Source: Thermodesulfovibrionales bacterium (GTDB lineage Bacteria; Nitrospirota; Thermodesulfovibrionia; Thermodesulfovibrionales; SM23-35). Taken from it: DNA of 64,000 bases. The DNA is taken from positions 65,206-129,205 of the forward strand of contig JAVHLL010000002.1 of assembly GCA_031082155.1 (NCBI GenBank), in the 5' to 3' direction. Position numbers and translations under genes: made by a program. Shown here piece after piece: positions 10,308-60,771 of the stretch; position 1 is the stretch's first letter, and every line of letters begins with the position of its first letter. The notes under the pieces are model-generated. The model was not told where the DNA came from and did not search any database. It saw only the letters and a list, made by a program, of their open reading frames with translations.

Positions 10308-10352
10308 TTCCTTATTTAGTTGCCGAAGCAGCAATGAAAGGAGCAAATTAAA

Positions 10353-10451
10353 TTGGAAATATTGATTATCGTGGCAGTAATAATTATCATCTTTTTTGTA
10401 TTTCCCAAGATAAAGAAGGGAATAAAAAAAACTTTCAAAAAACAGGAATAG
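10353..10451 (+). CDS. possible 32-aa hydrophobic/basic mini-protein
   Basis: TTG start 9 nt after AAGGAG. The product MEILIIVAVIIIIFFVFPKIKKGIKKTFKKQE has one TM helix plus a Lys-rich tail. It is below the ORF-track cutoff. Confidence 0.3.
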   Translation: MEILIIVAVIIIIFFVFPKIKKGIKKTFKKQE

Positions 10452-10498
10452 AACAGAAACGCTGATCCCCTGACAAACTGCTGCAAAAGTCTCTTGCT

Positions 10499-10521
10499 GT
10501 CATTGCGAGCGAAGCAATGAG
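10499..10521. repeat. short REP-like palindrome
   Basis: GTCATTGCGAGCGAAGCAATGAG contains the inverted repeat CATTGC/GCAATG and is intergenic. Confidence 0.4.
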
Positions 10522-10763
10522 ATCATAGGGGCATAATAATTCAGTCATTCGGATAGCGTTCTGCCACCGCTAAGTTCAAGCATCGGCCGTAATTAATTAC
10601 CCTTTATGAATTAATCGATGTTATCTATATTTCAGTAAACAATGATAGAAATGAACTATTGGACAAGATAGTGATAGAAAAGTGAAAGTATATGCAAAGA
10701 TAATTTTATGGAGCTTCAGACGGGCAAATGGTATATGAATCTGACAAACGGTAAGTGAGAAAA

Positions 10764-11813
10764 ATGCGCCTTTTCAAGAAAAAAACCCTGACAGGGCTAT
10801 CCCGTACGTGCGGCTGAGCAGCGAAAATTGGTCCGTCGGATCTGGCGGAAGCATTAAAAGCGCTTACTCCTTCACAGGATCCTAACCTTCTTGTCGGCTT
10901 CAATACTGCCGATGATGCGGCAGTGTACCGGCTCTCGGATGAGATAGCCTTTATCAGTACTGTTGATTTCATTACCCCGCCGGTGGATGATCCGTATTGG
11001 TTTGGACAAATTGCTGCAGCAAATTCCCTTTCGGATGTTTACGCAATGGGCGGAAAACCTCTTACTGCCCTGAACCTCGTCATGTTTCCTCCAAAGAAAC
11101 TTGACAAGAGCGTTTTGAAGGAAATACTCCATGGGGGGAATGACAAAGTCCTTGAATCCGGTGCTTCTATGGCTGGAGGACATTCTGTGGACGACAATGA
11201 GCCAAAGTATGGTCTTGCTGTTACAGGAATCGTCCATCCCGATAAAATACTGACAAACTGCGGGGCCCGGGAAGGCGATGTTTTGATTCTCACAAAACCA
11301 TTAGGCACCGGGGTCCTGTTTAATGCGTGCAGATCAGGAAAACTGTCATTCAACGAACTGGAAATACTCTTGCCTCAGGTGGCCTCGCTGAATAAAAAAT
11401 CTCTCGATATTGCACGGAGTTTTGACATCCATTCATGTACTGACATTACCGGGTTTGGTATTGTAGGACATTCGTGGGAGATGGCAGCAGGGAGTAGAGT
11501 GCAGATAGACCTTTTCTATAATGAACTGCCGTTTTATCCTCACGCGCTTGAAATGTATCGGAAAGGCGAAACCACTGGTAGCAATAAAGCAAATAGAAAA
11601 CTTTCAGAAGGCCGTCTGGAGATAGCCGCAAAATTGACGAAGGAGGAGGTAGAATTGCTCTTTGATCCGCAAACATCCGGTGGTCTTCTCCTGTCTGTTC
11701 CAGAGTCTCAGTCACAGAAGATGATGAGCGAAATGAAAACCGCCGGTATAGACACTATTGCAAAAATCGGCGAAGTGATAGCAAATCCGAATCCTTGTAT
11801 CAGAGTTATATAG
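10764..11813 (+). CDS. selD: selenide, water dikinase SelD, selenocysteine-containing (in-frame TGA at 10815-10817)
   Basis: ATG 10764 is in frame with track ORF 10923-11813. The product reads MRLFKKKTLTGLSRTCG-U-AAKIGPSDL...DPNLLVGFNTADDAAVY. The TGA sits exactly where E. coli SelD has the catalytic Cys (GxGCKI). Confidence 0.85.
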
Positions 11814-12016
11814 ATAGTCACTAAAGATTTATAATGACGGTTCTCACGTATGTGAGGAATATGACCCTCCTGTCCTACAGTACCCGAAGAGCGACGGTTT
11901 ATCCCCCTAGTAAGTATTGGTTTCTTGAAATATAAAAAATATGGCAAAAATGAAAGAATATCAAGCATCTGGAAGATGTGATAAGATACTATGCATAATC
12001 AAATGGGAAAGTACTT

Positions 12017-18058: not shown

Positions 18059-18118
18059 AATCAGTTTTTTGAAGGATATATACTGTTCTCATCTCATGTC
18101 CGTGAATAATGTATGGCA

Positions 18119-18164
18119 GGACGGTATATCCAAATAATATACAGGTCCTGCCATACGTTTTTGA
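18119..18164 (-). other. long stem-loop between mini-ORF and radical SAM gene
   Basis: GTATGGCAGGAC / GTCCTGCCATAC is a perfect 12-bp stem, extended internally by GTATAT/ATATAC. It lies in the 128-nt gap between the two minus-strand genes. Confidence 0.6.
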
Positions 18165-18167
18165 ATT

Positions 18168-18186
18168 AGTTGCTTGACCAGCAACT
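18168..18186 (-). promoter_or_regulatory. SECIS-like hairpin (AGUUGCU-GGUCA-AGCAACU)
   Basis: Perfect 7-bp stem with a GGUC-containing apical loop, starting directly after the TAA of the mini-ORF. The loop begins 16 nt after the second in-frame UGA. Confidence 0.5.
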
Positions 18187-18306
18187 TTAGCTCTTTCAGG
18201 ACTTTCATTTGCGGCATACCTTGCCGGGAACTTCCATCGCCTTTTTCAGGCTATCCCACAAGGCAGCCTCTTTCATGAGAGATTTTTCACTTAAAGGTCT
18301 TTTCAC
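18187..18306 (-). CDS. candidate Sec-containing RiPP precursor (39 codons if both UGAs are read as Sec; 33 aa otherwise)
   Basis: GTG start 7 nt after AAGGAGGTGA. The product is MKRPLSEKSLMKEAALWDSLKKAMEVPGKVCRK-UGA-KS-UGA-KS-TAA (TGA at 18205-18207 and 18196-18198). It lies immediately upstream of the rSAM/SPASM gene on the same strand. Confidence 0.5.
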
Positions 18307-35069: not shown

Positions 35070-36308
35070 TTATTGGTTTTGCAAGGGGTTTCCAATAAGG
35101 GTATATTCTTCTCTTCTCTTAATCCCTACGTGGACAAGCGATTTCACCGGACAACTATTTGAGGATACCCTTACCTTAAGGTAATTACTTGAAGTTCCTG
35201 ATGCCGTCCCGTCGTTACCACGTTCTTCTATAACAATAGCAAGCTTTCTCCCGATTTGTGATTCAGCATATCTTTTCTTTATGGCTCTGTTCAAGTGATT
35301 AAGCACCACACACCTCTCCTTTTTTACAGACGAAGCCACCTGACCTTGCATTTGCGAGGCGATCGTGTTTGGTCTGTTTGAATATGGAAAAACGTGAAGA
35401 TAAGAAAAAGGCAGCTCTTCGAGAAAAATCATGGTATTCTTGAACTCATTCTCACTTTCTCCTGGAAACCCGGCGATTATATCAGTACCCAAAGCGATTC
35501 CAGGGATATTGTGCATAATTTGTTCAACAACCTTCCTATACTCCCTGACGGTATATTTTCTGTTCATGAATTTCAAGATCTTGTCATCTCCGCTCTGAAG
35601 TGGAAGGTGTATATGCCTGCATATCCTCTCTTCGCTGAAATTATCGAGCAATTCTTCATTTATTTCGTGTGCTTCGAGAGAACTAATCCGTATTCGTTTT
35701 ATCATCGTTTTCCTAAGGATCATTTTCATCATATCCGAAAGTTTTAATTTAGGATTAAGGTCATAACCATATGATCCAATATGAATTCCTGTTAAGACAA
35801 CTTCGTTATATCCTTCATCTTCCAGACTCCTGATTCTTTCAATTATCTCATATGGCTGAACGCTTTGTGATTTTCCCCTTGCCAAAGGAACGATACAATA
35901 GCTACAGGTCATATTACAACCGTCCTGTATTTTTATAGATGGTCGCGCCCTTAATGAATAATTAAAGGTAATACTTTCTGAATTATTATCAATCGCATTG
36001 ATCATGCTATATTTATTGTTGTTATCAAAAATCAGTATTTTCCCATCTATACTTTGTATCTCCTCACGGTTCATTTCAGCATAGCATCCGGTAACATAAA
36101 CCTGACTGCTCTCCCGTAGGGCTCTCCTGATAAGCTGTCGTGACTGATAGTCACTCTTTGCGGTAACAGTGCAGGTGTTTATTATGCATATATCAGGATG
36201 TTCGGACAGTTTTACAAGAGAATGTCCGTTTTTTTGTAAATTCCCTTCGATTACTGTGCTTTCTGATTGGTTCACCTTGCAACCAAGCGTGAGGACTGTT
36301 ATTTTCAT
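35070..36308 (-). CDS. mtaB: radical SAM methylthiotransferase, MtaB-like
   Basis: N-terminal UPF0004 domain KITVLTLGCKVNQSES, rSAM CNMTCSYC and a C-terminal TRAM-like region. ATGA overlap with upstream miaB. Confidence 0.75.
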   Translation of the reverse strand: MKITVLTLGCKVNQSESTVIEGNLQKNGHSLVKLSEHPDICIINTCTVTAKSDYQSRQLIRRALRESSQVYVTGCYAEMNREEIQSIDGKILIFDNNNKYSMINAIDNNSESITFNYSLRARPSIKIQDGCNMTCSYCIVPLARGKSQSVQPYEIIERIRSLEDEGYNEVVLTGIHIGSYGYDLNPKLKLSDMMKMILRKTMIKRIRISSLEAHEINEELLDNFSEERICRHIHLPLQSGDDKILKFMNRKYTVREYRKVVEQIMHNIPGIALGTDIIAGFPGESENEFKNTMIFLEELPFSYLHVFPYSNRPNTIASQMQGQVASSVKKERCVVLNHLNRAIKKRYAESQIGRKLAIVIEERGNDGTASGTSSNYLKVRVSSNSCPVKSLVHVGIKRREEYTLIGNPLQNQ

Positions 36309-37600
36309 TCTTTCAGGGTTTTTCCTTCAAGAGAATGCTGCCTGGCTCTTATAATCTCTACGGTCATGAACGTGCCGTCCGTGCAGCCTGAAGTCTCAAC
36401 AGTCACTATTTTGTTTGTTCTTGTCCTTCCTGAAATCTGTTTCCCGCCTGCCCTACTCTTTCCCTCAACGAGAATCTCCTGTCGTGTCCCTTCGAGGCTC
36501 TTGTTCTTCCTTGCAGTTATTTTTTCCTGTACTGCAAGTATTTCGGAAAGACGTGAAGATTTTATGTGCTGAGGAAGGCTGTCGTCCATTTCTGCGGCGC
36601 CTGTGTCGGGTCTCGGAGAAAAACTGAATGCGAATATACCATCGTATTCCATCTCATGCAATGCATTGACTGTATTTATGTGGTCTTTCACAGTTTCTCC
36701 TGGAAACCCGGCGATAATGTCGCTTGTAATCGCTATGGCGGGAACTTTTTTCCTGAGCTTTTCCACTTTTTCCCTGTACTCCTTATAAGTATACCCCCTG
36801 TTCATACGGTTCAATACTATATCCGATCCTGATTGCAGTGGGAGGTGGATATGTTCACATACCTTGGGGAGTTCCGCAATTGCGTCCACAAGAGCATCAG
36901 AAAGGTCTTTGGGATGAGAGGTCACAAAGCGTATCCTCTCGATTCCCTCTATCTTGTCGATCTCCCGCAAGAGACCCGGAAAATCGAGATGACTCCTGTA
37001 AGAATTCACATTCTGCCCGAGTAGTGTTATTTCCCTGCATCCGCTTTCGGCAAGGCCTGCTGCTTCTTTCAGAATAGCATGAACCGGTCGTGATCTCTCT
37101 CTCCCTCTTGTATAGGGTACGACACAATAACTGCAGAAGTTATTGCATCCATACATAATCGTTACCCATGCTTTTATCCTGTCGTTTCTTATCACCGGTA
37201 GTTCGTGAAGTGCGATATCAGGATTGTCTTCCGTAGCTATGCGGTGACCATTTTCCCTCAGAAAATTCCTTAACAGGTGTACGTTTTGGGGACCGAATAC
37301 AAAATCTACATAGGGTGCTCTCCTCGTAATCTTCATGCCTTCCTGCTGGGCTATGCAACCGGCTATCGCTATCCGTACCCCGGGTTTTTTCTTCTTAAGG
37401 GCCCTGAACCGGCCAAGTTCACTGTAGAATTTCTGTTCGGCTTTCTGCCGGATGCTGCAGGTATTCAGGATTATAAGTTCCGCAGTGAGCGGATCGTTTG
37501 TCGCTTTATACCCCTCAGCATCGAGAACCCCCAGAATTTTTTCGGAGTCGTGCACGTTCATCTGGCATCCGAAAGTACGGATGTATACAGTTTTAGCCAT
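36305..37600 (-). CDS. miaB: tRNA-i6A37 methylthiotransferase MiaB
   Basis: MAKTVYIRTFGCQMNVHDSE..., rSAM CNNFCSYCVVPYTRGRE and a TRAM C-terminus. Start at ATG 37600. Confidence 0.85.
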   Translation of the reverse strand: MAKTVYIRTFGCQMNVHDSEKILGVLDAEGYKATNDPLTAELIILNTCSIRQKAEQKFYSELGRFRALKKKKPGVRIAIAGCIAQQEGMKITRRAPYVDFVFGPQNVHLLRNFLRENGHRIATEDNPDIALHELPVIRNDRIKAWVTIMYGCNNFCSYCVVPYTRGRERSRPVHAILKEAAGLAESGCREITLLGQNVNSYRSHLDFPGLLREIDKIEGIERIRFVTSHPKDLSDALVDAIAELPKVCEHIHLPLQSGSDIVLNRMNRGYTYKEYREKVEKLRKKVPAIAITSDIIAGFPGETVKDHINTVNALHEMEYDGIFAFSFSPRPDTGAAEMDDSLPQHIKSSRLSEILAVQEKITARKNKSLEGTRQEILVEGKSRAGGKQISGRTRTNKIVTVETSGCTDGTFMTVEIIRARQHSLEGKTLKE

Positions 37601-37748
37601 AATTAAAATGTAACATTTGGAAATCCATAGTGGCAAGGCATAAGGCAGCAATCCCGTTATTCTTTAAAAACGGTTCACTTTTAATTTGCAGATGAGATAC
37701 AGTGATACGTTCCTTGAAATATTATAATGTTCACTATATTATAAAAAC

Positions 37749-46818: not shown

Positions 46819-48187
46819 GGAGTCTTGTCAATAGGTGTGTAAAAAGCATTTAGGCGGCCATCCTTTCAAGCACGTTTGTTTCATGCTTCATAACGCCATC
46901 GACAAACCTTTTCCCTGTATAGACATCAGACAATAACCAGTATCCTTTTAAGGTACGGAAGTTCTTCTCCGCTACCTGAAGGAGTTTCCAAATCATTGCC
47001 GTTGCGTTTTGTACTTTCTTGAAACGCTTTGCAGCATCAGTCCTTAGTCTTACCGAACTGAAGGGAGATTCCACCACGTTCGTTGTCCGAATATGTACCC
47101 AGTGCTCCTTCGGGAATGAATAGAAGGTGATCATCCGATCCCAATCAGAGAGGAGCTTCTCCGCTGCCTTCGGATAATCCTTCCGGTACCGGTCGACGAA
47201 TGCATCCCTGAGCCGCTCGCACTCCGAAAGAGTCTCTGCATAAGGAATGCGCTTGAGATATTCCCCGGCCTCGGAGCGTATCCTCTTGGGGAAACAGTTA
47301 AGAACATTCCTGATTTTATGGTTCCAGCATCGCTGTTCCTTTCCCTCTGGATGGAGTTCTCCAAGAGCAGACCATATTCCGAGGTGTCCATCGGCAATTG
47401 TCAGTCTGCCAAGTTTCAGTCCCCGAGCCGTCAGGTTTCTCAAAACTCCACTCCAGGATTCCTTGCTCTCCCGGTAGCCGCTCTCACAGGCAAGAAAGAC
47501 TTTCTTCCCATTTGTGAGCCCTCCGATAATGACAAGAAGCGCCGCCTTGTCTTTTTCAAGGCCGGCTTTCACGTATATCCCGTCTGCCCACTGATAGACT
47601 ACTTCAAGTCTCGACATATCCAGTTGTTTCCATTCTGCATACTCCCGCTGCCATTTCGCCTTCAGCCGATCTATTGATGAGGCCGACAACGGCGCTCCAT
47701 CTCCCAATAAGCCCCTGAGCGCCAATTCAAAATCTCCTTTTGCCAAGCCGTGCAGGTATAACTCGGGTAAGAGTTGCCCTACTTCTTTCGACCGGCGCTT
47801 GAAAAAAGGGATTATCTTGCTTTCAAACCGATCCTCCGACCCCCTGACACGAGGGCGACGGACGGTGATCGTTCCATTCATTACGGAGAACTTCTTCGGT
47901 TTCCCGTGGCCGCTCCAATATCCAGGCGTTCCATCGACCATCGTAAGCCTCTCGGATTTCTTCCTTCCCAGAAATGTCTCGACTTCTTCCTCCAGTATGT
48001 CCTGAATGTATTCCTGAACCTTTAGCCGAACCATCTCCTCCAATACCTCATACGTTGCTCTTGACGGTTTTGCCGTCTCGGTGATACTCTTTCTCATGGT
48101 GGTGTCTCCTTTTCTTTGTTGATTTCGAGTTCAACTTAAAAGGATACACCGCCTTTCATCTATTTGCACACTTTTTGATTGTACTCC
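46819..48187 (-). mobile_element. IS256-family insertion sequence (1369 bp) with 9-bp target-site duplication
   Basis: Imperfect terminal inverted repeats GGAGTCTTGTCAATAGGTGTGTAAAAAG and (reverse complement) GGAGTACAATCAAAAAGTGTGCAAATAG, about 20/28 matching. It is flanked by direct repeats CTCAGTGAT at 46810-46818 and 48188-48196. Confidence 0.85.
46850..48097 (-). CDS. IS256-family (Mutator-type) transposase
   Basis: 415 aa with ...YQWADGIYVKAG...LVIIG...IADGHLGIWSAL...RCWNHKIRNVLN..., matching the IS256/MULE DDE transposase pattern. Confidence 0.9.
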   Translation of the reverse strand: MRKSITETAKPSRATYEVLEEMVRLKVQEYIQDILEEEVETFLGRKKSERLTMVDGTPGYWSGHGKPKKFSVMNGTITVRRPRVRGSEDRFESKIIPFFKRRSKEVGQLLPELYLHGLAKGDFELALRGLLGDGAPLSASSIDRLKAKWQREYAEWKQLDMSRLEVVYQWADGIYVKAGLEKDKAALLVIIGGLTNGKKVFLACESGYRESKESWSGVLRNLTARGLKLGRLTIADGHLGIWSALGELHPEGKEQRCWNHKIRNVLNCFPKRIRSEAGEYLKRIPYAETLSECERLRDAFVDRYRKDYPKAAEKLLSDWDRMITFYSFPKEHWVHIRTTNVVESPFSSVRLRTDAAKRFKKVQNATAMIWKLLQVAEKNFRTLKGYWLLSDVYTGKRFVDGVMKHETNVLERMAA

Positions 48188-48536: not shown

Positions 48537-48757
48537 ATTCACTACCCCCCGATAAAATCATTTTCTTACTTTTATTAGTATAACACATCAAATACTCTAT
48601 TGTGCCATTACTTTCTTTATGGAAGGTATCAAGAAAATATCTATATATCACGCCTTTTTTATCCAGATTATCTATTGGATTTATAGGTTTTTAATTGCCG
48701 ATAATAAAAAAGATGCGAGGGATGATATTGCTTGCTATTTTTAAAACAAACATCATT

Positions 48758-49228
48758 ATGAAGAGAATGATTGCTTCTCCATGGTCGTACAGGATTGTCC
48801 GTTTCATTATCGGAGCGATATTCATCTATGCAGGCTCAGTGAAACTCATTGATCCGAAAACGTTTGCACATTCAATATCGAGCTATGGGCTTGTTCCTGA
48901 AATTCTTCTCGCGCCGGTAGCAATCGGTCTTCCCGCACTGGAAGTCCTCGCAGGAATCGGCCTTATATTCAATATCCGGGGCAGCCTCACGGTGATTTTC
49001 GGCATGCTCGTCATGTTTGTCGTCGTCCTTTGGTACGGCATTCTTAAGGATATGAACATAGACTGCGGATGTTTCACTCCTGAAGAAATTTTCGAGCAGA
49101 ACAGCCTGCAAAAAGCTTTGTACCGTGACCTGGTCATGATTGGAGCTGTCCTCTATATGTATCTTTATCGGTATACACAGTCACAGCGAAGATTAAGCCA
49201 TAGTTCATGGCTCTTAAAAATACTCTAA
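48758..49228 (+). CDS. MauE/DoxX-family membrane protein
   Basis: IVRFIIGAIFIYAGSVKLIDPKTFAHSISSYGLVPE...LPALEVLAGIGLIF. The start is uncertain because the ORF is open from 48695. Confidence 0.65.
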   Translation: MKRMIASPWSYRIVRFIIGAIFIYAGSVKLIDPKTFAHSISSYGLVPEILLAPVAIGLPALEVLAGIGLIFNIRGSLTVIFGMLVMFVVVLWYGILKDMNIDCGCFTPEEIFEQNSLQKALYRDLVMIGAVLYMYLYRYTQSQRRLSHSSWLLKIL

Positions 49229-49244
49229 GGAGGTAGTACCTGTT

Positions 49245-49757
49245 ATGTTGAAATTCAGGGTTATTCTTATGTTGCTCGTCACCAGTATCTTTCTTGCGAC
49301 AACTGCGGTGAATAGTCATGCGTTATGGGGTACAAAAGAACTGGATACGGAAAAATCCGCGGTGAAACTATCAAGAGAAGTGACACGCGGAGGATATGGT
49401 ATCGTTTCGACCGAAGAATTGAAAAAGTGGACTGATGAGAAAAAAAGAATGCTAATCATCGATACTATGCCCTATGAAGACAGTTACAAAAAGGAGCATG
49501 TACCAGGCGCAGTTCAGTTCGAATTCCCTATCCCGGAAGTCACCTCGCTTGATGACAAGACCAAAGAAGCATTCCTCAAAATGCTTGGTCCGGATAAAGA
49601 CCGTACCATAGTCATTTACTGCGGGTTTGTGAAATGCACACGCAGTCATAATGGCGCAATGTGGGCAGTGAAACTCGGATACAAGAATGTCTACCGCTAT
49701 CCTGGCGGGATAAAAGCATGGAAAGAGGCTGGTTATCCGGTAGACAAAGCAAAATAA
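49245..49757 (+). CDS. secreted rhodanese-domain sulfurtransferase
   Basis: Signal peptide MLKFRVILMLLVTSIFLATTAVNSHA, and a rhodanese fold with active-site loop YCGFVKCTRS and ...GGIKAWKEAGYPV. Confidence 0.8.
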   Translation: MLKFRVILMLLVTSIFLATTAVNSHALWGTKELDTEKSAVKLSREVTRGGYGIVSTEELKKWTDEKKRMLIIDTMPYEDSYKKEHVPGAVQFEFPIPEVTSLDDKTKEAFLKMLGPDKDRTIVIYCGFVKCTRSHNGAMWAVKLGYKNVYRYPGGIKAWKEAGYPVDKAK

Positions 49758-50778: not shown

Positions 50779-51258
50779 CTATACTCTCAGGGTTGCAGTA
50801 AGCCTTTTAGGATGGAGAAACAGTTCAATCGCATCGATGGGAGACGCTACAAAGATTTGCGATGCACAGAATGTCTTTCGTGAACAGCCCTCCCTGAGAC
50901 ATACAACAATACCGAGCTTTGCTGCTCTCAGCATCCGTGAATCATTGTTTCCGTTTCCAAGCGCTGCTACTCTTTCGGCGCCAAGGCCCTTCACATAATT
51001 TTCCTTTTGTGATGTGTGATCTTCGCCTTCAAGCACTTGGACTATGCAATTTATTCCCTGCAGTTCTTCCCTGGCGCGTCCAAACGTATCCGAGGTTAAT
51101 ATATGAATCTTCAGGTGTTGGGCAAGTTCATTGAGTTTTTCCTTAACCCCTTCCAGAACGATTCCATCCTCGGAAAGAGTTCCCGAAAAGTCCGAGACAA
51201 AATGTTCGAGTTCAAGAAGACCGTATCCCGGTATGTCAAGTACAAACACAGCGAGCAC
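50779..51258 (-). CDS. HAD-superfamily hydrolase (soluble P-type-ATPase-like)
   Basis: 159 aa. FVSDFSGTL (DxxGT-like) and GNGNNDSRMLRAAKLGIVV (the GDGxND motif). Confidence 0.7.
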   Translation of the reverse strand: MLAVFVLDIPGYGLLELEHFVSDFSGTLSEDGIVLEGVKEKLNELAQHLKIHILTSDTFGRAREELQGINCIVQVLEGEDHTSQKENYVKGLGAERVAALGNGNNDSRMLRAAKLGIVVCLREGCSRKTFCASQIFVASPIDAIELFLHPKRLTATLRV

Positions 51259-51393
51259 CTCCCTGTATTTTTATACAGTATAACCAGAAATACAGATAAA
51301 GATAACCACATAAAATATTATCATAGGTGAAAGGTCTGAAAGAGTTGACGTTGCTGGTCATGTAATTCAACCGAACAAGTAAGACAGAACATG

Positions 51394-53313
51394 TTAATGC
51401 AAAACGTGCTCGGTAATATATTCTTCCTGCTCGGTCTCATTTTTCAGTAGTATCCTTATATCCCCTACCCGTCGTGTAACCTGAACAAAATCGAGATAGT
51501 TGAGAAAGTGGATGGCATATTTACTTCCAACTCCGCAACACTGTTTGAATTCCTTAACAGTCATCCCGGATTTCGTACCAAAGAATAATTTTAATTGTTC
51601 TACTATTTTCTTGAATACCGATGATGCGAGATAGAGTGAATCGTTAATTCTTATCAGTAATCCCTGTTTTGTGAGAATTTTCATAATATCCGATGACTTG
51701 CCCGGTTCAATAAGGAGTGACCGACAGATTTCTTCTCTTAGTGGAGGACGACATCCTGCCTTCTCAATAATTGCAAGGACTCTGTTTTTAAGTTCATTGT
51801 CCTCCTGTGATAATAAGGTATTGAATGAGGAAAGCCTTGCAATATCTCTCTCTATAATTAATTCCGGTAATTTGGCAACGATGAAGTCAAAGAACTTTGG
51901 TTGCATATTCAGGCAACTTCTGAGTTCCTCTTTCGGCATTCCGGCTTTGAGGGGATTTCTTTTATGGAAATATATCAGCGCACTTTTCGCGAGCTCTCCA
52001 ATACGGTGAAAAATATTTTTATGCATCAACAAATCGCCGTTCATGAGAATACTACCATTTTTCCTGAGTTCTGTAATAGCATTGTGAATAACCGGGATAT
52101 CTGCATGAATCCAGCCTTCAATGAAAGGAGCAGATATTCCTTGGATACCTGAACGCATTACTTTTGCTTCGATTTTTTCTGTCAGTGAACCGCGCTCCAG
52201 AACAGGCAGGCTTTCAAGATTTTTTCTATGGCTCATTTTATAAGAAGTAGAATCAAGGACCACTCCGCCGCCTATGGTATCAAGCGGTGAAAATCTTCTG
52301 ATTATAAATCTGTCGCCTGACATGACTATAACCGGTTCCTGAAGCCTGAACTGGCAATACCATGATTCACCCGGCGCCATCTTTTTCTTTTCGTATAAAA
52401 TAACCCTCGCCATGTTTTCCGTGGTTCCGATATGGAGATGCACAATATCCCTGTTCTTCAACTCCGGCGCATTGGGAAGGAGTTTCAATTTTGCATCAAT
52501 CACAGCTGAAGGGATGAACCTACCGGGCATAACTACTGCATCCCCCCTTTTTAATGCCTCTTTCTCAACACCCTGAAGGTTAATTGCAACTCTTTGCCCC
52601 GCACAGGCTTTTTCTATGGACTTGCCATGACTATGCAGGCCTCGCACTTTACTTTTAATATTGCTCGGAAGAATATTTACTTCATCATTTAAGGAGATGA
52701 ATCCTGAAACAGCAGTACCTGTTACCACAGTTCCAAACCCTTTTAAGGTAAAAACCCTGTCTATGGGTAAGCGGAAAATGCCCTTTACAGACTTTGGATC
52801 AACTGTGAAAGCAACTGCCCTGATCTTATCTTTGAGGATGTCAATATTCAGCATGGTCTTCGAAGAGACAGGAACAATCTGTGCATTTTCAAGGAATGAG
52901 CCCGCAACAAAGGCCCTGACATCTTCCTTTACCAGATCGAGCCATTCATCGTCTACAATATCTACCTTTGTTATAGCGATAATACCCGTTTTGATTCCCA
53001 GTAAATTACAGATATGAAGGTGTTCCCTGCTTTGCGGCATGACTCCTTCGTCCGCATCGATAACGAGAAGAACCATATCAATTCCGCTCGCTCCTGCAAG
53101 CATATTCCTGATCAGGCGTTCATGTCCCGGCACATCAACTATGCCCACGGTAAGGCCATCAGGATATCTCAAATCAGCAAAACCGAGATCAATCGTTATA
53201 CCTCGTTCTTTTTCTTCCTTGAGACGGTCGGGATCTATCCCGGTGAGGGCTTTTACAAGGGCACTCTTGCCATGATCGATATGTCCTGCTGTTCCGAGAA
53301 TTCTGTAATGCAT
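51394..53313 (-). CDS. selB: selenocysteine-specific elongation factor SelB
   Basis: From ATG 53313 the product reads [46 protein letters not shown]...[12 protein letters not shown]...TKVD. A long winged-helix C-terminal half follows, for 639 aa in total. Confidence 0.9.
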
Positions 53314-53339
53314 GTTTTTCTTTTGGAAGAAATGTTTTT

Positions 53340-53434
53340 TGGAGAAGGGAAGTGGGAATCGAACCCACCATGAGCTTTTCTTCACTCATGCACTGGTTTT
53401 GCAGACCAGGTGAGGCCCCAGCCCCCTACCCTCC
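53340..53434 (-). tRNA. tRNA-Sec-like tRNA (8/5 acceptor/T, long variable arm) with GCA (Cys) anticodon and U73
   Basis: The reverse complement is GGAGGGTAGGGGGCTGGGGCCTCACCTGGTCTGCAAAACCAGTGCATGAGTGAAGAAAAGCTCATGGTGGGTTCGATTCCCACTTCCCTTCTCCA. Acceptor GGAGGGUA/UUCCCUUC, T arm GUGGG-UUCGAUU-CCCAC, anticodon arm CUGGU-CUGCAAA-ACCAG, variable stem CAUGAG/CUCAUG, and CCA encoded. Confidence 0.8.
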
Positions 53435-53653
53435 AGTTGAATTATTATATTTATTATTACAATATGTCAAATAGATTAATTCAATATAATACGAATAATA
53501 TATTTAATTCATTAATGTCATCCCTTAATTCTATGTATATTTTCTAATATATAGTTATTATCTATTTTAATTATGATGATTAATTATGTTTAAAATACAA
53601 TATCAGAATTTAAAGCAACCATACTTAAACAACAACTTCAAAGGAGGATTTAT

Positions 53654-54949
53654 ATGTCCAAGGATTATAAGCAGATGTGGAGTGATCTTGAGATAAACCT
53701 TGATGCCCATGACGGGCTACTGGGTGTTCTCTCGGATGCGTATACGAACATTTATCTTTCACAAAAAAACCGTCCGGAAGGGATGAAATACTTCGATTTT
53801 GTCATTTCTGAAGTGCATGGCCTCAGGATAGAAGAGATTGTCGAGGCAAAGAAACAGGGTAGAAAGGTTATCGGTACTTTTTGTGTTTATGTGCCGGAGG
53901 AACTGATTCTAGCGGTGGACGGGGTCGATATCGGTCTCTGTGCCGGCGCCGATGTAGGTACTGACGAGGCAGAGAAATACATCCCCAGGAATACCTGTGC
54001 GCTCATCAAGGCATTCATGGGTTTCAAGCTCGCCGGACTCTGCCCCTATGTCCAGACTGCCGATCTTATCGTTGGCGAGACAACCTGCGACGGAAAGAAA
54101 AAGGCCTATGAACTGTTTAATGAAATGACGAAAGGTAAAGTTTATGTAATGGAAATTCCGAATAAAAAGGGAGAAGACGGCAAAACCCTCTGGTTGAACG
54201 AGGTTCAACGATTCGCTGCAAAACTTGAAGGAATAAGCGGCAAAAAGATAACTCCCGAAAAGCTCAAAGAAGCATCAAAGGTTGTAAATGAAAAGAGGAA
54301 AGCCCTTCAACGTCTGGCTTCTCTCCGTTCGGCAGACCCTTCTCCCATTTCAGGGCTTGATGCCCTGCTTGTGAATCAGGTTGCCTTCTATGATGATCCG
54401 TTGCGTTTTACTGCAAAGGCGAATGAACTCTGTGATGAACTGACGGAAAGGGTCAAAACAGGCAAAGGAGTTTCGGCGAAGGGAAGTCCCCGAATTCTAA
54501 TCTCCGGTTCGCCTATGGCGATTCCGAACTGGAAGATACATGCAATTGTTGAAGGAAGCGGCGCAACGATTGTCGGTGAAGAGTCATGCGTAGGGGAGAG
54601 GAACTTTGCGTCACTCATGGATGAAAACTTTTCCTCTCTGAATGAGGGAATGCGGAATATCGCAGACCGCTATCTCACCATAAACTGCGCCTGCTTTACT
54701 CCTAATGACGAGCGGCTCACTGATATCGAAACCATTGCGAAAAGAGTAAAAGCAGACGGCATTCTTCACTATGCCATACAGTTCTGCACGCCTTACATGA
54801 TTGAAGCGACAAAAGTGAAGAAAGTTACAGACAAAATGAAAATGCCTTTTCTTCGTATTGAAACAGACTATAGTATGGAAGACATGGGACAGCTCAAAAC
54901 AAGGATTGAAGCATTCCTTGAGATGATAGGGAACGGCACAAGAGTGTGA
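53654..54949 (+). CDS. 2-hydroxyacyl-CoA dehydratase-family / double-cubane-cluster (DCCP, YjiM-like) reductase
   Basis: 431 aa. KVIGTFCVYVPEELILA...GLCAGAD...PRNTCALIKAF...GETTCDGKKKAY... shows the conserved Cys pattern of the HgdB/BcrC/YjiM family. A strong AAAGGAGG RBS lies upstream. Confidence 0.75.
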   Translation: MSKDYKQMWSDLEINLDAHDGLLGVLSDAYTNIYLSQKNRPEGMKYFDFVISEVHGLRIEEIVEAKKQGRKVIGTFCVYVPEELILAVDGVDIGLCAGADVGTDEAEKYIPRNTCALIKAFMGFKLAGLCPYVQTADLIVGETTCDGKKKAYELFNEMTKGKVYVMEIPNKKGEDGKTLWLNEVQRFAAKLEGISGKKITPEKLKEASKVVNEKRKALQRLASLRSADPSPISGLDALLVNQVAFYDDPLRFTAKANELCDELTERVKTGKGVSAKGSPRILISGSPMAIPNWKIHAIVEGSGATIVGEESCVGERNFASLMDENFSSLNEGMRNIADRYLTINCACFTPNDERLTDIETIAKRVKADGILHYAIQFCTPYMIEATKVKKVTDKMKMPFLRIETDYSMEDMGQLKTRIEAFLEMIGNGTRV

Positions 54950-55689
54950 GAATTGGCGGTATTGATATTGGCTCAAGGTACATCAAATATGTGCTCCTTG
55001 AGGGTAATTCAATCCTCGATTTCAAAAAGAGGGAGACAGGACATAATCCGTTGTCGGTATGTAAAGAACTCCTTACAGTAAACCGTCCGGAAAAAATTGT
55101 CGCCACAGGGTATGGAAGATATTTGCTTGAAGTATTCGGTGATATCAGGACGATAACGGAAATAAAAGCGGTAGCAAAAGGGGTAAAGGCAATTTTTCCC
55201 CTTTGCAGGACAATTATCGATATAGGGGGACAGGACACGAAGGTAATCAGTCTGTCAGATCAGGGATCAGTCGTGAATTTTGAGATGAACGATCGTTGTG
55301 CAGCAGGAACGGGGAGATTTATCGAGATCATGTCCAGAGCGCTCGGTTATGATCTCGATCATTTCGGGGCTTCCTGCAACAGCAGGTCCGGTAATGTTAA
55401 AATAAACAGCATGTGTACGGTCTTTGCTGAATCAGAGGTTATCAGTCTTATTGCGAAAGGTGAAAAGAGAGAAGTAATTGCGTATTCCATCCATGATTCG
55501 ATTGCGAGTAAAGTCATCTCTATGGTAAAGCGGATAGATATTCAGGATGACATTGTTTTCGCAGGAGGATGCGCCCGGAACCCATGTCTCAGGAGGATAC
55601 TGGAAGAACGATTACAAAAAACGCTTTATGTTCATGAAAATCCCTATATGCACGCTGCGTATGGCGCGGCGCTCTATGCGGATATATAA
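54946..55689 (+). CDS. BcrAD/BadFG/HgdC-type ATPase activase (YjiL-like)
   Basis: GTG start overlaps the previous stop (GTGA). IGGIDIGSRYIKYV...DIGGQDTKVI...MNDRCAAGTGRFIE...CTVFAESEVIS is the ASKHA fold with the bridging-[4Fe-4S] Cys motifs. Confidence 0.85.
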   Translation: MRIGGIDIGSRYIKYVLLEGNSILDFKKRETGHNPLSVCKELLTVNRPEKIVATGYGRYLLEVFGDIRTITEIKAVAKGVKAIFPLCRTIIDIGGQDTKVISLSDQGSVVNFEMNDRCAAGTGRFIEIMSRALGYDLDHFGASCNSRSGNVKINSMCTVFAESEVISLIAKGEKREVIAYSIHDSIASKVISMVKRIDIQDDIVFAGGCARNPCLRRILEERLQKTLYVHENPYMHAAYGAALYADI

Positions 55690-55694
55690 TTGCA

Positions 55695-56738
55695 ATGGAG
55701 ATTTCACCAAAATTAGCAGAAAAAGCGCGTGCTGCAGGTTGAGCTTCAAAGATAAGTCCGTCGGACTTATCAGATATACTCGACGGCTTGCCTGCCAGCA
55801 AGGATCCGAATCTTCTTGTCGGGATTGAAACATCGGACGACGCAGGAGTATACCGCCTCACCCCTGAGATAGCCCTGATACAGACCCTTGATTTCTTCAC
55901 GCCGATAGTGAATGATCCCTATGATTTTGGTCGTATCGCTGCAGCCAATTCATTAAGCGATGTATATTCTATGGGAGGGAAGCCCCTTACAGCGATGAAT
56001 ATCGTCTGCTTTCCTATCAAAGAAATGGACAAGTCGGTTCTCCGGTCAATTCTTGAAGGAGGACTTGAGGTCATTCATAAATCCGGGGCCGTTATGGTTG
56101 GCGGGCATAGCGTGGAAGATCCGGAACTTAAATACGGACTCTCCGTAACTGGTGTTGTTCATCCTGAGCATTTCCTGAAAAATTCCGGAGCCAGACCGGG
56201 AGATATGCTTGTTCTTACCAAACCTTTGGGCACCGGTGTGCTTGCTACAGCATTGAAGGGACGTCTCCTTGATGATCGGACGACCAGCGTACTGACTGAT
56301 TTGATGGCAACCCTGAACAAAGATGCAGCGGAAGTTATGTCTGAAACAGGCGTAAATGCCTGTACCGATATAACGGGGTTCGGCCTTATCGGACATGCGC
56401 TCGAAATGGCCAAGGCCAGCAACGTCGGTATGCGCATTTATGCCGATAAAGTCCCGGTTATCCCGGAGGCCAAAAGCTTTGCCGCGATGGGAATGATTCC
56501 GGCCGGAAGTCATCTGAACCGTAAATTCTGTGCTCATCATCTCGACATCAGCCCTTCTATAAATCCTATTCTTTTGGATCTCTTTTCGGATGCGCAGACA
56601 TCAGGCGGTCTTCTCATCTCTGTTCCTGCACAAAAAATTCATACTCTTGTCCAGGGACTTCTTGAAAGGGAAACTCCCGCAGCCCACGTTATAGGAGAGG
56701 TGATCTCTGGACCGTCAGGAGTCATCCAGATACGGTAA
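55695..56738 (+). CDS. selD: selenide, water dikinase SelD, selenocysteine-containing (in-frame TGA at 55740-55742)
   Basis: ATG 55695 is in frame with track ORF 55788-56738. The product reads MEISPKLAEKARAAG-U-ASKISPSDL...DPNLLVGIETSDDAGVY. A perfect hairpin at 55751-55771 lies downstream of the TGA. Confidence 0.9.
55751..55771 (+). promoter_or_regulatory. SECIS-like hairpin of selD
   Basis: GATAAGTCC-GTC-GGACTTATC is a perfect 9-bp stem beginning 8 nt after the UGA. Confidence 0.6.
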
Positions 56739-56744
56739 ATATTC

Positions 56745-57011
56745 ATGACAGTATATGCAGTCATAACCTTTCATAACACGCATTTTGCGCTCAAGGCTAA
56801 AAAAGTCCTCGAAAAAAACGGAAAAACCGTCGAGACAATCCCCGTTCCCCGTGAATTCAGTTCAGAGTGCGGGTTCTGCTGTAAGGTACCGTGGGACGAG
56901 AGAGATATGGCTGATAAAATTCTCAGGGAGCATGATGTACAAGTAGAACATATCTACCGCTGGGAAAGAGACGATGATAAAGAGAGGAAAAATAAATTTA
57001 CGTTTGTATAA
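56745..57011 (+). CDS. DUF3343 (putative S/Se carrier-like) protein
   Basis: 88 aa. AVITFHNTHFALKAKKVLEKNG...IPVPREFSSECGFCC matches the recalled DUF3343 pattern, which is commonly found next to yedF. Confidence 0.65.
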   Translation: MTVYAVITFHNTHFALKAKKVLEKNGKTVETIPVPREFSSECGFCCKVPWDERDMADKILREHDVQVEHIYRWERDDDKERKNKFTFV

Positions 57012-57026
57012 AAGAGGAGGCAAGGT

Positions 57027-57638
57027 ATGGCTTATCAGATTGATGCAAGAGGATTGCCCTGTCCTCAGCCTGTTTTAAAAACAAAGGAAGCCCTTGGGCG
57101 GGCAAAAGGGTCATCTTTGATTGTTATTATCGACAATGAGGCCTCAAGGGATAATGTTATAAGATTTCTTGAGAATTCCGGAGTTACTCTTGAGAAAGTC
57201 GAGACCAGAGGAAATGATTTTTTTATTCATACAAAGGAAACAGCATACAGTGTCTCGTCCGGGATTAAACCTGAAGACTATCCATGTGCAGTTCCCTCGG
57301 GAGCCGGATCTGCTCTTTTCATTAATAAGGACCGTATCGGACATGGGAGCGATGAACTGGGAACAAACCTTATGAAGGCTTTTATCACGACAATAAAAGA
57401 CCTCTCTGTTCAACCGAAAACCATCTGTTTCATGAACAGCGGGGTAAAGCTGACGGTGAAAGAGGCGGCAACCCTTCCCTATCTGAAAGAATTAGAAGAG
57501 AAAGGGATAGAAATGCTGGTTTGCGGTACCTGTCTCAGTTACTTTAACCTCAAAGAACAAATCGGCGTCGGAAAAATATCCAATATGTACGATATATCGG
57601 AAACCATGCTGAAGTCTTCTAAAGTAATAACCCTATAG
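57027..57638 (+). CDS. yedF: selenium metabolism protein YedF (TusA/SirA-like + DsrE-like domains)
   Basis: N-terminus IDARGLPCPQPVLKTKEAL (the CPxP motif of the TusA family), and a C-terminal half with the DsrE-like ...VCGTCLSYF... segment. At 203 aa it is typical of YedF. Confidence 0.8.
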   Translation: MAYQIDARGLPCPQPVLKTKEALGRAKGSSLIVIIDNEASRDNVIRFLENSGVTLEKVETRGNDFFIHTKETAYSVSSGIKPEDYPCAVPSGAGSALFINKDRIGHGSDELGTNLMKAFITTIKDLSVQPKTICFMNSGVKLTVKEAATLPYLKELEEKGIEMLVCGTCLSYFNLKEQIGVGKISNMYDISETMLKSSKVITL

Positions 57639-57643
57639 GGTCT

Positions 57644-58810
57644 ATGCCAAGCTGGGTTATGGGTACAAAAGTTATCTACTTTGACAATGCTGCAACATCC
57701 GGCAGGAAACCTGTAACGGTTTCGCACGCCATATGCGACTGCCTCAAACACGCAAACGCGAATCCCGGGAGATCAGGACATTCCCTTTCGGTGAAGGCTG
57801 CCGAGATAATTTATTCGTGCCGTGAAATTCTTGGTGAATTATTCAACTTCCCTAAAACAGAAAATATAGTCCTGACAAAAAATGCAACCGAAGCATTGAA
57901 TCTCGCCCTCTATGGCGGGCTGAAGAACGGCTGTGAAGTCATAACCACCTCGATGGAACACAATTCTGTGCTGAGGCCCCTGAATCATCTGCACAACAAG
58001 GGCATCATCCGTTTATATATCTTAAGTGCTGATGGAAATGGTGTGGTCCATCCGAAGCAGATAAAGGAAGCCATTACTGAAGACACAAGTCTCATTGTCG
58101 TCACTTCTGCCTCTAATGTCACCGGTACAAAGATGGATTTGCAGGGTATATATCACGCTGCACAAGAAGCCGGAGTAAAAATGCTTGTTGACGGCGCACA
58201 GGGAGCCGGAGCACTGAGAATAGATCTGAAAGAAACACCATTCGATTTTCTTGCGGTTACTGGACACAAGCATCTCTTCGGCCCTCAGGGCACCGGCGCC
58301 CTGATTATAAAGAATGCAGATGATCTGGACTCCTTCATGCGAGGCGGCACCGGAAGTCAGTCGGAAATGACAATACATCCTGATTTTCCACCCGACAAAT
58401 ATGAGGCAGGAACTCTGAATACTCCTGGATACGCAGGTCTGGTTGCAGGGATACGGTTCATTCTTGATGAAGGCCTGGAGAAAATCGTTGGATATGAACA
58501 TGAGCTGACAGAATATCTTCTCGGAAAACTGGCAGATATCGAGGAGATACAACTATATGCACCCGATGCAGACCGTGTTGCCACGGTATCGTTTAATATT
58601 CAGGGCACACCTCCTTCTGATGTTGCGTATTTTCTGGACAGGGAATGGGGCATATGTGCAAGATCCGGTCTCCATTGCGCTCCGGAAGCGCATAAAACAC
58701 TGGGCACGTTTTCAGGAGGAACAATCAGGTTTTCTTTTTCATTTTTTAATACGAAAGAGGAAATTGACAGTGCAATAGAGGCGCTGAAGGATTTTGTGAA
58801 ACACAGATAG
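57644..58810 (+). CDS. class V aminotransferase-fold cysteine desulfurase / selenocysteine lyase-like enzyme
   Basis: IYFDNAATS..., TGHKHL (PLP Lys) and active-site ARSGLHCAPEAH. Confidence 0.85.
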   Translation: MPSWVMGTKVIYFDNAATSGRKPVTVSHAICDCLKHANANPGRSGHSLSVKAAEIIYSCREILGELFNFPKTENIVLTKNATEALNLALYGGLKNGCEVITTSMEHNSVLRPLNHLHNKGIIRLYILSADGNGVVHPKQIKEAITEDTSLIVVTSASNVTGTKMDLQGIYHAAQEAGVKMLVDGAQGAGALRIDLKETPFDFLAVTGHKHLFGPQGTGALIIKNADDLDSFMRGGTGSQSEMTIHPDFPPDKYEAGTLNTPGYAGLVAGIRFILDEGLEKIVGYEHELTEYLLGKLADIEEIQLYAPDADRVATVSFNIQGTPPSDVAYFLDREWGICARSGLHCAPEAHKTLGTFSGGTIRFSFSFFNTKEEIDSAIEALKDFVKHR

Positions 58811-58893
58811 ATGCAAGAGGCTTACAGCCTGTTGCATCTATTGTCCAATAATTGACTATGCATTAATACCTTAAGATATATCAGGCATCTATT

Positions 58894-60771
58894 ATGGAAG
58901 ATTCTCCGGATATCCAGACAGAAAAAAAGAAGGTTATCGCCAAGGATTTCAGTCATCTCAATATACACGAGAACCTCAAGACTGAGTTTTCGGTCATTTC
59001 CGGAAAATGCATACAATGCAAGCTTTGTCAGAAAGAGTGCGCGTTCCTCGGCAAATATGGAAAACCAAAGGATATCACCGATTCGTACGATCCCGGAAAC
59101 ACTGCACATCAGGGAATGCCGTTTGAATGCAGTCTCTGTCAGCTCTGCGCATCTGTCTGTCCGGTAAAGATCAACCCGGCACGCATGTTTCTTGAAATGA
59201 GACGTGAAACCGTCAGAAAAGGAAAAGGCGATTATCCTGAACATAGCGTCATTCTTGGATATGAAAAGCGTGGCGCCTCGAAACGGTATTCATACTATGC
59301 GCTTCCGGATAGCTGTGACACTGTCTTCTTCCCCGGCTGCACTCTACCGGGTACCCGTCCCAATCAGGTGCTGAAACTTTATGAACATCTGAAGAAAACT
59401 ATACCTTCTCTTGGCATTGTGCTTGATTGTTGCACAAAGCCCTCGCATGACCTTGGAAGAGAGCGGTTCTTTCAGGCAATGTTCCAGGAGATGAAGGGGT
59501 ATCTGGCAAGAAATGGCATACGCACTGTCATTGTAGCCTGCCCGAACTGTTATAAGATTTTTCAACAATATGGGAGAGATGAACTTTCTGTTGTTACCGT
59601 TTATGAAGTTATGGCAGAAAAAGGTCTTCCTGAAACCGGCCAGGTGGCGGGAAGTATTACTGTTCATGACTCCTGCGGAGTAAGATTCGAAGAAAATATT
59701 CACGAATCGGTACGAAACATAGTAAAGAAAAGAGGCTTGCAGATCGACGAAATGAAGCACAGCGGGAAAAAAACGCTCTGCTGCGGGGAAGGAGGGTCAG
59801 TCGGTTTCCTGAATCCTGACCTATCCAGGAAATGGAGTTTCCTGAGAAAAACTGAAGCGGACGGGAGAAAAATGGTTGCATATTGTGCGGGATGCGCCAA
59901 CCTCCTCAATTCGATCACCCCCACGAGCCATATTCTGGACCTCACCTTTGAACCGGAAAACGCTGTTGCAGGAACAGTGAAGGTTTCCAAAGCTCCATTC
60001 ACATACTTCAACCGTCTCAGGCTAAAAAAGCATTTTAAAAACACACTCCTTGCTACAAAAACGAGAGAGAGAACATTCTTTGCAGGTGAAGAAAAGGGGA
60101 AAGTACAATGGTTAAAGCGTATAATAATTCTTTTCATCATTCTGTCTGCTATCCTTGCCATACGGTTTACCGATGCAACCCAGTACCTTGAACAGGACAC
60201 CCTCAGAGGCCTGATTCAGGGTTATGGTGTACTGGCTCCGGTTATCTATATGCTGATATATACTGTGGCGCCTGCCTTGTTTTTACCCGGACTTCCCCTC
60301 ACTATTGCAGGAGGCATCCTCTTCGGACCCTTATGGGGAGTTGTCTATACTATTACAGGCGCCACTCTGGGCGCCTGCGTGGCTTTTCTTATATCACGAT
60401 ATGTTGCCAGGGAATGGTTAGCAAACAAATGCAGAAGCCCCAGATGGAGAAGACTTGACAAAGGTGTTGAGAAGCACGGCTGGAAAATTGTTGCGTTTAC
60501 GCGCCTCATACCAATATTTCCTTTTAATCTTCTGAACTATGCATTCGGACTTACAAAGATACCATTTCTGCACTATGCCGTCACAACATTTCTCTTTATG
60601 CTGCCGGCCTGCATTGCTTTTATAGTCTTCTCGAGTTCTCTTCTGGACATCTTGAAAGGGAAGATATCCCCTATTTTCCTTATAGGGGTTGGTCTTATTG
60701 TGCTGGTTTTGTTACTTCCTTATGTTTACAGACGTTACAAGGCAAAAAAAGGCGAATCAGAACCTCTCTGA
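58894..60771 (+). CDS. fusion protein: 2x[4Fe-4S] ferredoxin + CCG (HdrD/GlpC-like) domains + DedA/TVP38 membrane domain
   Basis: CIQCKLCQKEC and CSLCQLCASVCP, then CCG-type motifs FFPGCTLPG...LDCCTKP and HDSCGVR...LCCGEGG. The C-terminal ~220 aa are polytopic with LPGLPLTIAGGILFGPLWG...FTRLIPIFPFNLLNYAFGLT, the DedA/SNARE-associated signature. Confidence 0.75.
   Translation: MEDSPDIQTEKKKVIAKDFSHLNIHENLKTEFSVISGKCIQCKLCQKECAFLGKYGKPKDITDSYDPGNTAHQGMPFECSLCQLCASVCPVKINPARMFLEMRRETVRKGKGDYPEHSVILGYEKRGASKRYSYYALPDSCDTVFFPGCTLPGTRPNQVLKLYEHLKKTIPSLGIVLDCCTKPSHDLGRERFFQAMFQEMKGYLARNGIRTVIVACPNCYKIFQQYGRDELSVVTVYEVMAEKGLPETGQVAGSITVHDSCGVRFEENIHESVRNIVKKRGLQIDEMKHSGKKTLCCGEGGSVGFLNPDLSRKWSFLRKTEADGRKMVAYCAGCANLLNSITPTSHILDLTFEPENAVAGTVKVSKAPFTYFNRLRLKKHFKNTLLATKTRERTFFAGEEKGKVQWLKRIIILFIILSAILAIRFTDATQYLEQDTLRGLIQGYGVLAPVIYMLIYTVAPALFLPGLPLTIAGGILFGPLWGVVYTITGATLGACVAFLISRYVAREWLANKCRSPRWRRLDKGVEKHGWKIVAFTRLIPIFPFNLLNYAFGLTKIPFLHYAVTTFLFMLPACIAFIVFSSSLLDILKGKISPIFLIGVGLIVLVLLLPYVYRRYKAKKGESEPL

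Follow-up and report, generated by a model that had tools for sequence, protein, structure and literature searches.

A stretch of 64,000 nucleotides (nt) from a Thermodesulfovibrionales bacterium (contig JAVHLL010000002.1, positions 65,206 to 129,205; hereafter the window) carries on its minus strand, at 53434-53340, a transfer RNA (tRNA) gene of 95 nt including the encoded CCA, with the sequence GGAGGGUAGGGGGCUGGGGCCUCACCUGGUCUGCAAAACCAGUGCAUGAGUGAAGAAAAGCUCAUGGUGGGUUCGAUUCCCACUUCCCUUCUCCA, followed directly by selB. The product has the shape of a selenocysteine (Sec) tRNA and the identity marks of a cysteine tRNA, and its sequence makes it a probable functional member of the selC* tRNACys type, a class that Vargas-Rodriguez et al. 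reportedly named tRNAReC in 2018, which would insert cysteine at UGA codons served by SelB together with a SECIS (selenocysteine insertion sequence). The tRNA gene (53340..53434) is preceded by a sigma-70-like promoter (53441..53470, minus strand) found by pattern scan, with TTGACA, an 18-nt spacer and AATAAT (11/12 matches) and with an alternative TATAAT at 15-nt spacing within the same block; the block, known as a consensus match alone, stops ~7-9 nt short of the 5' end of the tRNA. Downstream, an A/U-rich spacer of 26 nt (53314..53339, minus strand) leads from the tRNA CCA, which ends at 53340, to the selB ATG at 53313, and no clear Shine-Dalgarno sequence is seen in this spacer. The selB gene itself (51394..53313, minus strand) encodes 639 residues and scores 360 bits with TIGR00475, for which the cutoff is 242. 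No terminator-like sites were found in 51000-54500, the tRNA-selB interval included, and from this layout the tRNA and selB apparently form one operon.

The assignment of the tRNA gene draws on ARAGORN, Rfam, a covariance model of our own, covariation and direct reading. ARAGORN reads minus-strand 53344-53436 as tRNA-Cys(gca), and cmscan of the whole 64-kb window against 4227 Rfam families returns RF01852 (tRNA-Sec) at 53434-53344, its 56.0 bits exceeding the gathering score of 47 (E = 1.2e-8); our own covariance model gives the window tRNA 97 bits. Both ARAGORN and the Rfam model place GCA, and no other triplet, at positions 34-36, with CUGCAAA as the anticodon loop in the RF01852 alignment. 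Read directly, the acceptor stem (53434-53427 with 53351-53344) joins GGAGGGUA and UUCCCUUC in 8 pairs, of which the first is G1:C72, and which include a G2.U pair and a U7.U mismatch. A single linker G precedes the D arm (53425-53412), where the five-pair stem GGGGC/GCCUC closes the 4-nt loop UGGG; the anticodon arm (53410-53391; GCA at 53402-53400) has the stem CUGGU/ACCAG and a sixth C:G pair beyond a bulged U; the variable arm (53390-53369) has the 6-pair stem CAUGAG/CUCAUG and a loop of 10 nt; and the T arm (53368-53352) has five uninterrupted pairs (GUGGG/CCCAC) and the canonical loop UUCGAUU. The 3' end consists of U73 at 53343 and CCA at 53342-53340. The T loop is followed by 13 nt up to the discriminator (12 in ordinary tRNAs), which implies an acceptor/T branch of 13 pairs (8/5). 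A minimum free energy fold of the single sequence (z = -2.06) is extended and not a cloverleaf, as is common for tRNAs, and was set aside. An earlier, sequence-only reading of the window had claimed the 8-bp acceptor stem with its G-U pair and U-U mismatch, the 5-bp T stem, the D arm with a 4-nt loop, the 6-bp variable stem, the 13-bp 8/5 architecture of tRNASec, the GCA anticodon, the U discriminator before the encoded CCA and the 26-nt distance to selB, and each of these holds. It is confirmed that 53340-53434 is a real tRNASec-shaped gene with cysteine identity marks; U73 and GCA are key elements for cysteinyl-tRNA synthetase (CysRS) (PMC5389517).

A scan of metagenomes with a pattern consisting of the anticodon arm and the T loop, with a long variable region between them, gave 88 related loci (labelled L002, L003 and so on), all with exactly the anticodon arm of the window tRNA. 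Together with the window tRNA and three found by look-ups, the metagenome set holds 73 distinct tRNAs, most of them 94-99 nt long, and 66 of the 73 end in U73-CCA. The anticodon stem and T loop say nothing on conservation, since the search pattern fixes them. Selection on the fold was gauged on 36 distinct relatives with the cloverleaf without the variable arm, whose stem was left out of the count because the MAFFT alignment loses register there. The proposed cloverleaf pairs in 98.4% of cells, and double-sided changes are seen in 12 pairs, compared with 3.5 in shuffles (0/500 shuffles reach the observed value); when the partners are slid by 1-3 columns, pairing drops to 53-64%. Compensatory changes support both the acceptor stem, in which pair 7 alternates between U-A (in 15) and C-G (in 12), and the D stem, in which five pairs show double changes. 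The window's own clade has G2.U71/A3-U70 in place of A2-U71/G3.U70, and the U.U acceptor mismatch is common to the whole subclade (L002, L055, L074). The tRNA is thus a conserved gene selected for its fold and for U73 with GCA rather than a chance hairpin or relic.

Other tRNA-like sequences lie in or near the related loci. Extra tRNAReC-like genes upstream of a tRNA-selB pair occur in L003 (8007-8163, plus strand) and L024 (6175-6327, minus strand); these have GCA, U73 and a variable-arm insertion of ~75 nt, score 41-49 bits with our model, and may represent pseudogenes or else a long-arm variant of an unusual kind. Degenerate tRNA remnants stand just upstream of an intact copy in L003 (9578-9663, plus strand) and L057 (3492-3585, minus strand), and L003 holds a second intact copy (15568-15662, minus strand) at a distance of 5.6 kb; the remnants and the second copy suggest that duplicates of the tRNA gene have arisen locally, and decayed, more than once. 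A different tRNA type with the same GCA anticodon arm and a long variable arm is found at L049 884-978, L091 296-390 and L064 1-82; with an apparent G73 and a C1.A72 mismatch (62-65 bits, own model), it might be a relative with Sec or Ser identity.

The SelB encoded next to the tRNA has all of the EF-Tu-like and winged-helix domains, and its SECIS-binding C-terminus is intact. Alignment to the SelB structures of Aquifex aeolicus (4zu9) and Escherichia coli (5lzb) reveals that R30, F45, D185, R186, H229 and R241 are kept; these residues have been named as the Sec-binding pocket, and in the crystal the A. aeolicus pocket held free L-cysteine (PMC4605307). Judged by these residues, the aminoacyl pocket is fully canonical. 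This SelB is 100% identical to a protein of a Thermodesulfovibrionales metagenome-assembled genome, and its closest homologues are all from Nitrospirota; a scan of genome contigs with it gave only an unrelated archaeal EF-like locus. As to the selB start, the window's mechanically called open reading frame (ORF), 51394-53385, runs into the tRNA, and in L096 the called selB (10001-11956) has a start that overlaps the tRNA (9942-10036), so that the annotated 651-residue SelB of L096 is probably ~25 residues too long.

The sequence-only reading had also claimed a physical coupling of the tRNA to selB, which is real in the window and conserved in relatives. Eight SelB contexts were fetched without reference to the tRNA, and in five of them (L002, L003, L096, L097, L098) the tRNA lies directly upstream of selB; the other three (L004, L093, L094) have selB without the tRNA and share the synteny selA, GATase, NicX, selB, ispF, ispD. 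Of the 84 metagenome loci in which 300 nt or more follow the tRNA, 20 have a selB start no more than 120 nt after the T arm, and the tRNA-selB spacers of 23 loci, the window's included, measure 23-58 nt. The -35 and -10 blocks are kept in L002, L055, L074, L011 and L045, where the flanks diverge. In loci where selB is not the neighbour, the tRNA adjoins yedF (~16 loci), selD, a dicluster 'near Sec' gene or a double-cubane reductase gene. A separate observation concerns a large subgroup (L026, L054, L014, L017, L023, L051, L061, L078, L080 and L088), in which the next gene after the tRNA, an ORF that starts ~45 nt past it, encodes a conserved protein of ~180 residues with the motif YRLVFIQKD...LYAGSHDDCFRWIERNKG and no Pfam match, often with yedF next to it.

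Two selD genes of the window supply candidate targets for the tRNA. The nearer one, selD-B (55695..56738, plus strand; TIGR00476, 360 bits), has an in-frame TGA at 55740-55742 (AAG-U-ASK), and folding places a 9-bp SECIS-like hairpin at 55751-55771, 11 nt past the UGA, which the orthologues in L074 and L038 retain; its mRNA is a likely client of the tRNA. The other, selD-A (10764..11813, plus strand; found by tblastn), is 49% identical to selD-B, has its in-frame TGA at 10815-10817 (TCG-U-AAK) and has an orthologue in L003 that likewise contains TGA. All six of the selD genes seen near such tRNAs have TGA at the catalytic codon. The sequence-only reading had assigned in-frame UGA to both selD genes, which stands, with the TGA at the catalytic position in each, and to a candidate peptide, for which there was no support: a brief look near the radical S-adenosylmethionine (SAM) gene at 17012-18058 gave no supportable UGA-containing peptide. 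The region 17012-18217 on the minus strand comprises this radical SAM/SPASM maturase-like gene and, just upstream, a 42-residue ORF (18089-18217), which may be the candidate peptide in question.

The genes around selD-B are also concerned with selenium or recur with the tRNA. Divergent from the tRNA lies a double-cubane-cluster reductase gene (53654-54949, plus strand; NF040772, 478 bits), which is also found upstream of the tRNA in L055, L074 and L011, followed by a reductase activase gene (54946-55689, plus strand; TIGR00241, 221 bits) that leads into selD-B. Beyond selD-B, profile matches on the plus strand identify a Se/S carrier-like protein (56745-57011), YedF (57027-57638), a cysteine desulfurase/Sec-lyase-like protein (57644-58810) and a dicluster/CCG/VTT-domain protein of the 'near Sec' family (58894-60771); the selenium-handling genes of 56745-60771 also accompany the tRNA in related loci. 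On the other side, after selB, a gene for a protein of 159 residues (50779..51258, minus strand) has weak NCBIfam matches that indicate haloacid dehalogenase (HAD)/P-type-ATPase-like similarity, and no Pfam match; in 12 related loci, those that have lost selB among them, this conserved gene again lies beside the tRNA or the tRNA-selB pair.

As published, selC* tRNACys species are tRNASec-like, combine U73 with either GCA or UCA as the anticodon and occur in anaerobes including Thermodesulfovibrio/Nitrospirae (Mukai et al. 2017, PMC5389517). The operational rules for the class call for a length of at least 80 nt and assign G/A73 to tRNASec and U73 to tRNAReC (PMC13582414); the window tRNA has the tRNASec-like fold, U73 and GCA and is 95 nt long with CCA. 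As for the host apparatus, the window holds selB and two selD genes, selA and a UCA/G73 selC were not found in it, and in related Nitrospirota contigs selA is a neighbour of selB. The tRNAReC-type identity put forward by the sequence-only reading is therefore borne out for all of the sequence-level features of the class. The 8-bp acceptor stem, long variable arm, extended anticodon stem, U73 and GCA are features that the window tRNA shares with tRNAReC/selC*, as are an anaerobic host with Sec machinery, here selB and selD, and a proposed role as a Cys-inserting safeguard at UGA. What sets it apart from those published is an 8/5 branch with a D stem of 5 bp and one linker nt, and a position directly before selB in a selD/yedF selenium gene cluster. 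The GCA member of D. nigrificans reportedly bypasses EF-Tu, relies on SelB for delivery and decodes UGA as Cys (PMC11415595); that member has been characterised biochemically, whereas the window tRNA is known from its sequence. According to a second report, the GCA and UCA types both recode UGA together with a SECIS (PMC13582414). The window tRNA is a new example of a class published in 2017-2018 and not a new kind, and both the occurrence in Nitrospirae/Thermodesulfovibrio and the idea of a backup were already published in those years.

The closest parallel in gene order is the selC*-selB*(-cysS*) arrangement of two deltaproteobacterial groups (PMC5389517), in which the tRNA likewise stands immediately before selB (e.g. 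in Desulfococcus biacutus and Desulfomonile tiedjei). The tRNAs of these modules are 8/4 with an A51a bulge, whereas the window tRNA is 8/5 with an unbroken T stem, and the cysS*-linked ones have UCA and A1:U72 where the window tRNA has GCA and G1:C72. Moreover, the deltaproteobacterial selB* is an extra copy, with a truncated CysRS* after it in Desulfobacterales; in the window no cysS follows selB, the HAD-like gene for 159 residues standing there instead, and no CysRS-like ORF is present among the annotated ORFs of the window. With canonical tRNASec (selC, RF01852) the window tRNA shares the 13-bp branch, the D arm, the long variable arm and a presumed dependence on SelB; canonical tRNASec, however, combines UCA with G73, is charged with serine and undergoes conversion by SelA, whereas the window tRNA has GCA and U73. 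A cysteine anticodon on the same tRNASec shape is known from the tRNASec(GCA) of Aeromonas salmonicida, which reportedly keeps Sec identity and inserts Sec at chosen UGC codons (Mukai et al. 2016, cited in PMC11415595); the proposal for the window tRNA is the opposite, Cys at UGA. In Alphaproteobacteria selC is nested in selB, and excess SelB, it has been argued, can sequester Sec-tRNASec, so that the levels of both matter (PMC8124441). The window arrangement resembles this nesting, and that of a tRNA operon with an elongation factor gene, in that a tRNA is coupled physically, and probably transcriptionally, to its carrier factor, but the coupled tRNA of the window is a cysteine-identity mimic and not the canonical substrate of the factor. 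Such an operon is E. coli thrU-tyrU-glyT-thrT-tufB, in which tRNAs are co-transcribed with an elongation factor gene.

Taken as a functional tRNAReC-type gene, which we consider its probable nature, the window tRNA would act as follows. The tRNA and selB would be transcribed together from the tRNA's own promoter, and a single promoter for both genes means that the supply of tRNA would stay tied to that of SelB; the tRNA would then be excised by the ordinary tRNA-processing enzymes. CysRS would charge it with cysteine, as its identity elements and published tests on other members suggest, and EF-Tu would be expected to refuse it on account of the 13-bp acceptor/T branch, to judge by published work on the class. 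SelB-GTP would bring the Cys-tRNA to ribosomes paused at a UGA with a SECIS hairpin, where the UGA would be read through a G34-A mismatch and Cys inserted, the likely clients including both selD mRNAs of the window. SelD could then be made with little or no Sec-tRNASec, so that selenophosphate synthesis could start. This solution to the bootstrapping of a SelD that itself contains UGA, as envisaged in the sequence-only reading, is in line with the rescue of a UGA-containing selD by selC* tRNACys in E. coli (PMC5389517). The SelB involved is most likely the ordinary SelB of the lineage and not a specialised paralogue.

A number of observations weigh against this account. Co-transcription of the tRNA and selB is deduced from gene layout alone, and the acceptor stem of the window tRNA contains the U7.U mismatch and the G2.U pair. 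The long variable arm is what seryl-tRNA synthetase (SerRS) reads, and some serylation is possible. Neither selA nor a UCA/G73 selC was found in the 64-kb window; in 604 kb of tRNA-carrying loci our covariance model found no UCA-type tRNASec, only extra degenerate copies of the same tRNA, and no selA was found there either, selA being seen only in the three tRNA-less selB loci of related Nitrospirota contigs. Finally, selB has been lost beside an intact tRNA. A clean deletion of 1.86 kb has removed the adjacent selB from L074 (5003 nt), whose flanks are ~88% identical to the window, yet the tRNA of L074 is intact and its neighbouring selD keeps the TGA; L055, from the same metagenome, keeps selB. 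In L011 and L045 selB is truncated and frameshifted (residues 1-211 joined to 568-638) with the tRNA intact, and L031 and L043 have an intact tRNA with only a C-terminal remnant of selB. The losses in L074, L011 and L045 fit a dispensable second SelB better than a sole SelB; the genomes could have another selB, or the loci could be defective variants.

These losses are one reason to consider that the adjacent selB is a dedicated second copy (SelB*) that serves the Cys-tRNA only, with a canonical SelB elsewhere for Sec-tRNASec, an arrangement with the deltaproteobacterial selC*-selB* as its precedent (PMC5389517). The three SelB homologues that stand in a selA-linked context without the tRNA also agree with it, as do the C-terminal remnants in L031 and L043. 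However, no genome or contig was seen with two selB genes. When 139 SelB sequences were placed in a neighbour-joining tree, no clean split between SelB and SelB* emerged: the tRNA-linked SelBs are spread across most clades and form no clade of their own, and L028 has a SelB of the 'selA-linked' clade with ispF/ispD neighbours, yet with the tRNA upstream. The aminoacyl pocket, moreover, is that of a canonical SelB, and the selB deletions could be defective population variants. On balance, a dedicated second SelB is a doubtful explanation, though the best placed of the alternatives.

Somewhat less likely still is a broader proposal, that in this Nitrospirota lineage tRNAReC-selB is a self-contained module for cysteine at UGA that can be gained, duplicated or lost independently of the normal Sec route. 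It would be right if what lies beside the tRNA were a dispensable second selB, as L074, L011 and L045 hint, and, in a more radical form, if some hosts had no canonical tRNASec, so that UGA with a SECIS meant cysteine only (e.g. in SelD).

The main rival as to the identity of the tRNA itself, a true tRNASec with an unusual anticodon that would be charged by SerRS and converted by SelA, would insert Sec either at UGA, through mispairing, or at UGC codons flanked by a SECIS, and might even be the only tRNASec of the lineage, is in our estimation improbable. Such a role would suit the Rfam tRNA-Sec match, the long variable arm needed by SerRS and the lack of a UCA-type tRNASec in the window and in the 604 kb of related loci, and the Aeromonas molecule provides a precedent for a tRNASec with GCA. 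U73 is also compatible with serine identity in allo-tRNAs (PMC5389517). Against this, U73 together with GCA, the two strongest CysRS determinants, is found in 66 of the 73 distinct relatives, the published rule assigns U73 to tRNAReC, and the assayed members of the U73 class are cysteine tRNAs (PMC5389517, PMC11415595). As selC is often unlinked to other sel genes, little can be read into its absence from loci as short as these. A decaying or non-translational tRNA-like element, e.g. a leader for the processing or stability of selB mRNA, as might be suspected from the degenerate copies in L003 and L057 and the U.U mismatch of the window copy, is hardly credible, as the cloverleaf, GCA loop, T loop, U73 and CCA are kept in 66 distinct sequences with compensatory changes, the mismatch is a trait of the whole subclade and the tRNA is kept in many loci without selB downstream, which a selB leader role does not explain.

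Further features of the window lie apart from the tRNA locus. At 35070-37651 on the minus strand, genes for an MtaB-like and a MiaB methylthiotransferase are adjacent; an anticodon loop that ends in A36-A37-A38, as that of the window tRNA does, is the usual i6A/ms2i6A37 context, and there is no evidence of a link between the two. An IS256-family transposase gene (46850-48097, minus strand) lies a few kb from the selB locus. At 48695-49757 on the plus strand, a MauE/DoxX membrane protein gene is followed by one for a rhodanese of 170 residues, whose highest-scoring NCBIfam hit, at 112 bits and thus far short of the cutoff, is to the N-terminal part of selenoprotein TsoB.

For annotation, a UGA in genomes with such a tRNA is not safely read as Sec, and the labels that tRNA finders give to such a gene, 'tRNA-Cys' or 'tRNA-Sec', are both misleading. 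To what had been published, the survey adds that metagenomes commonly contain the family (88 loci), that it travels with selB, yedF and selD, that the apparent tRNA-selB operon is typical of Thermodesulfovibrionales relatives and conserved in Nitrospirota, and that the adjacent selB has been lost, for reasons as yet unexplained, in some relatives in which the tRNA and, in L074, a UGA-containing selD persist. For the organism itself, the locus points to a route by which UGA-dependent SelD may be made under selenium scarcity, namely through a cysteine-charged look-alike of tRNASec that would be delivered by SelB.

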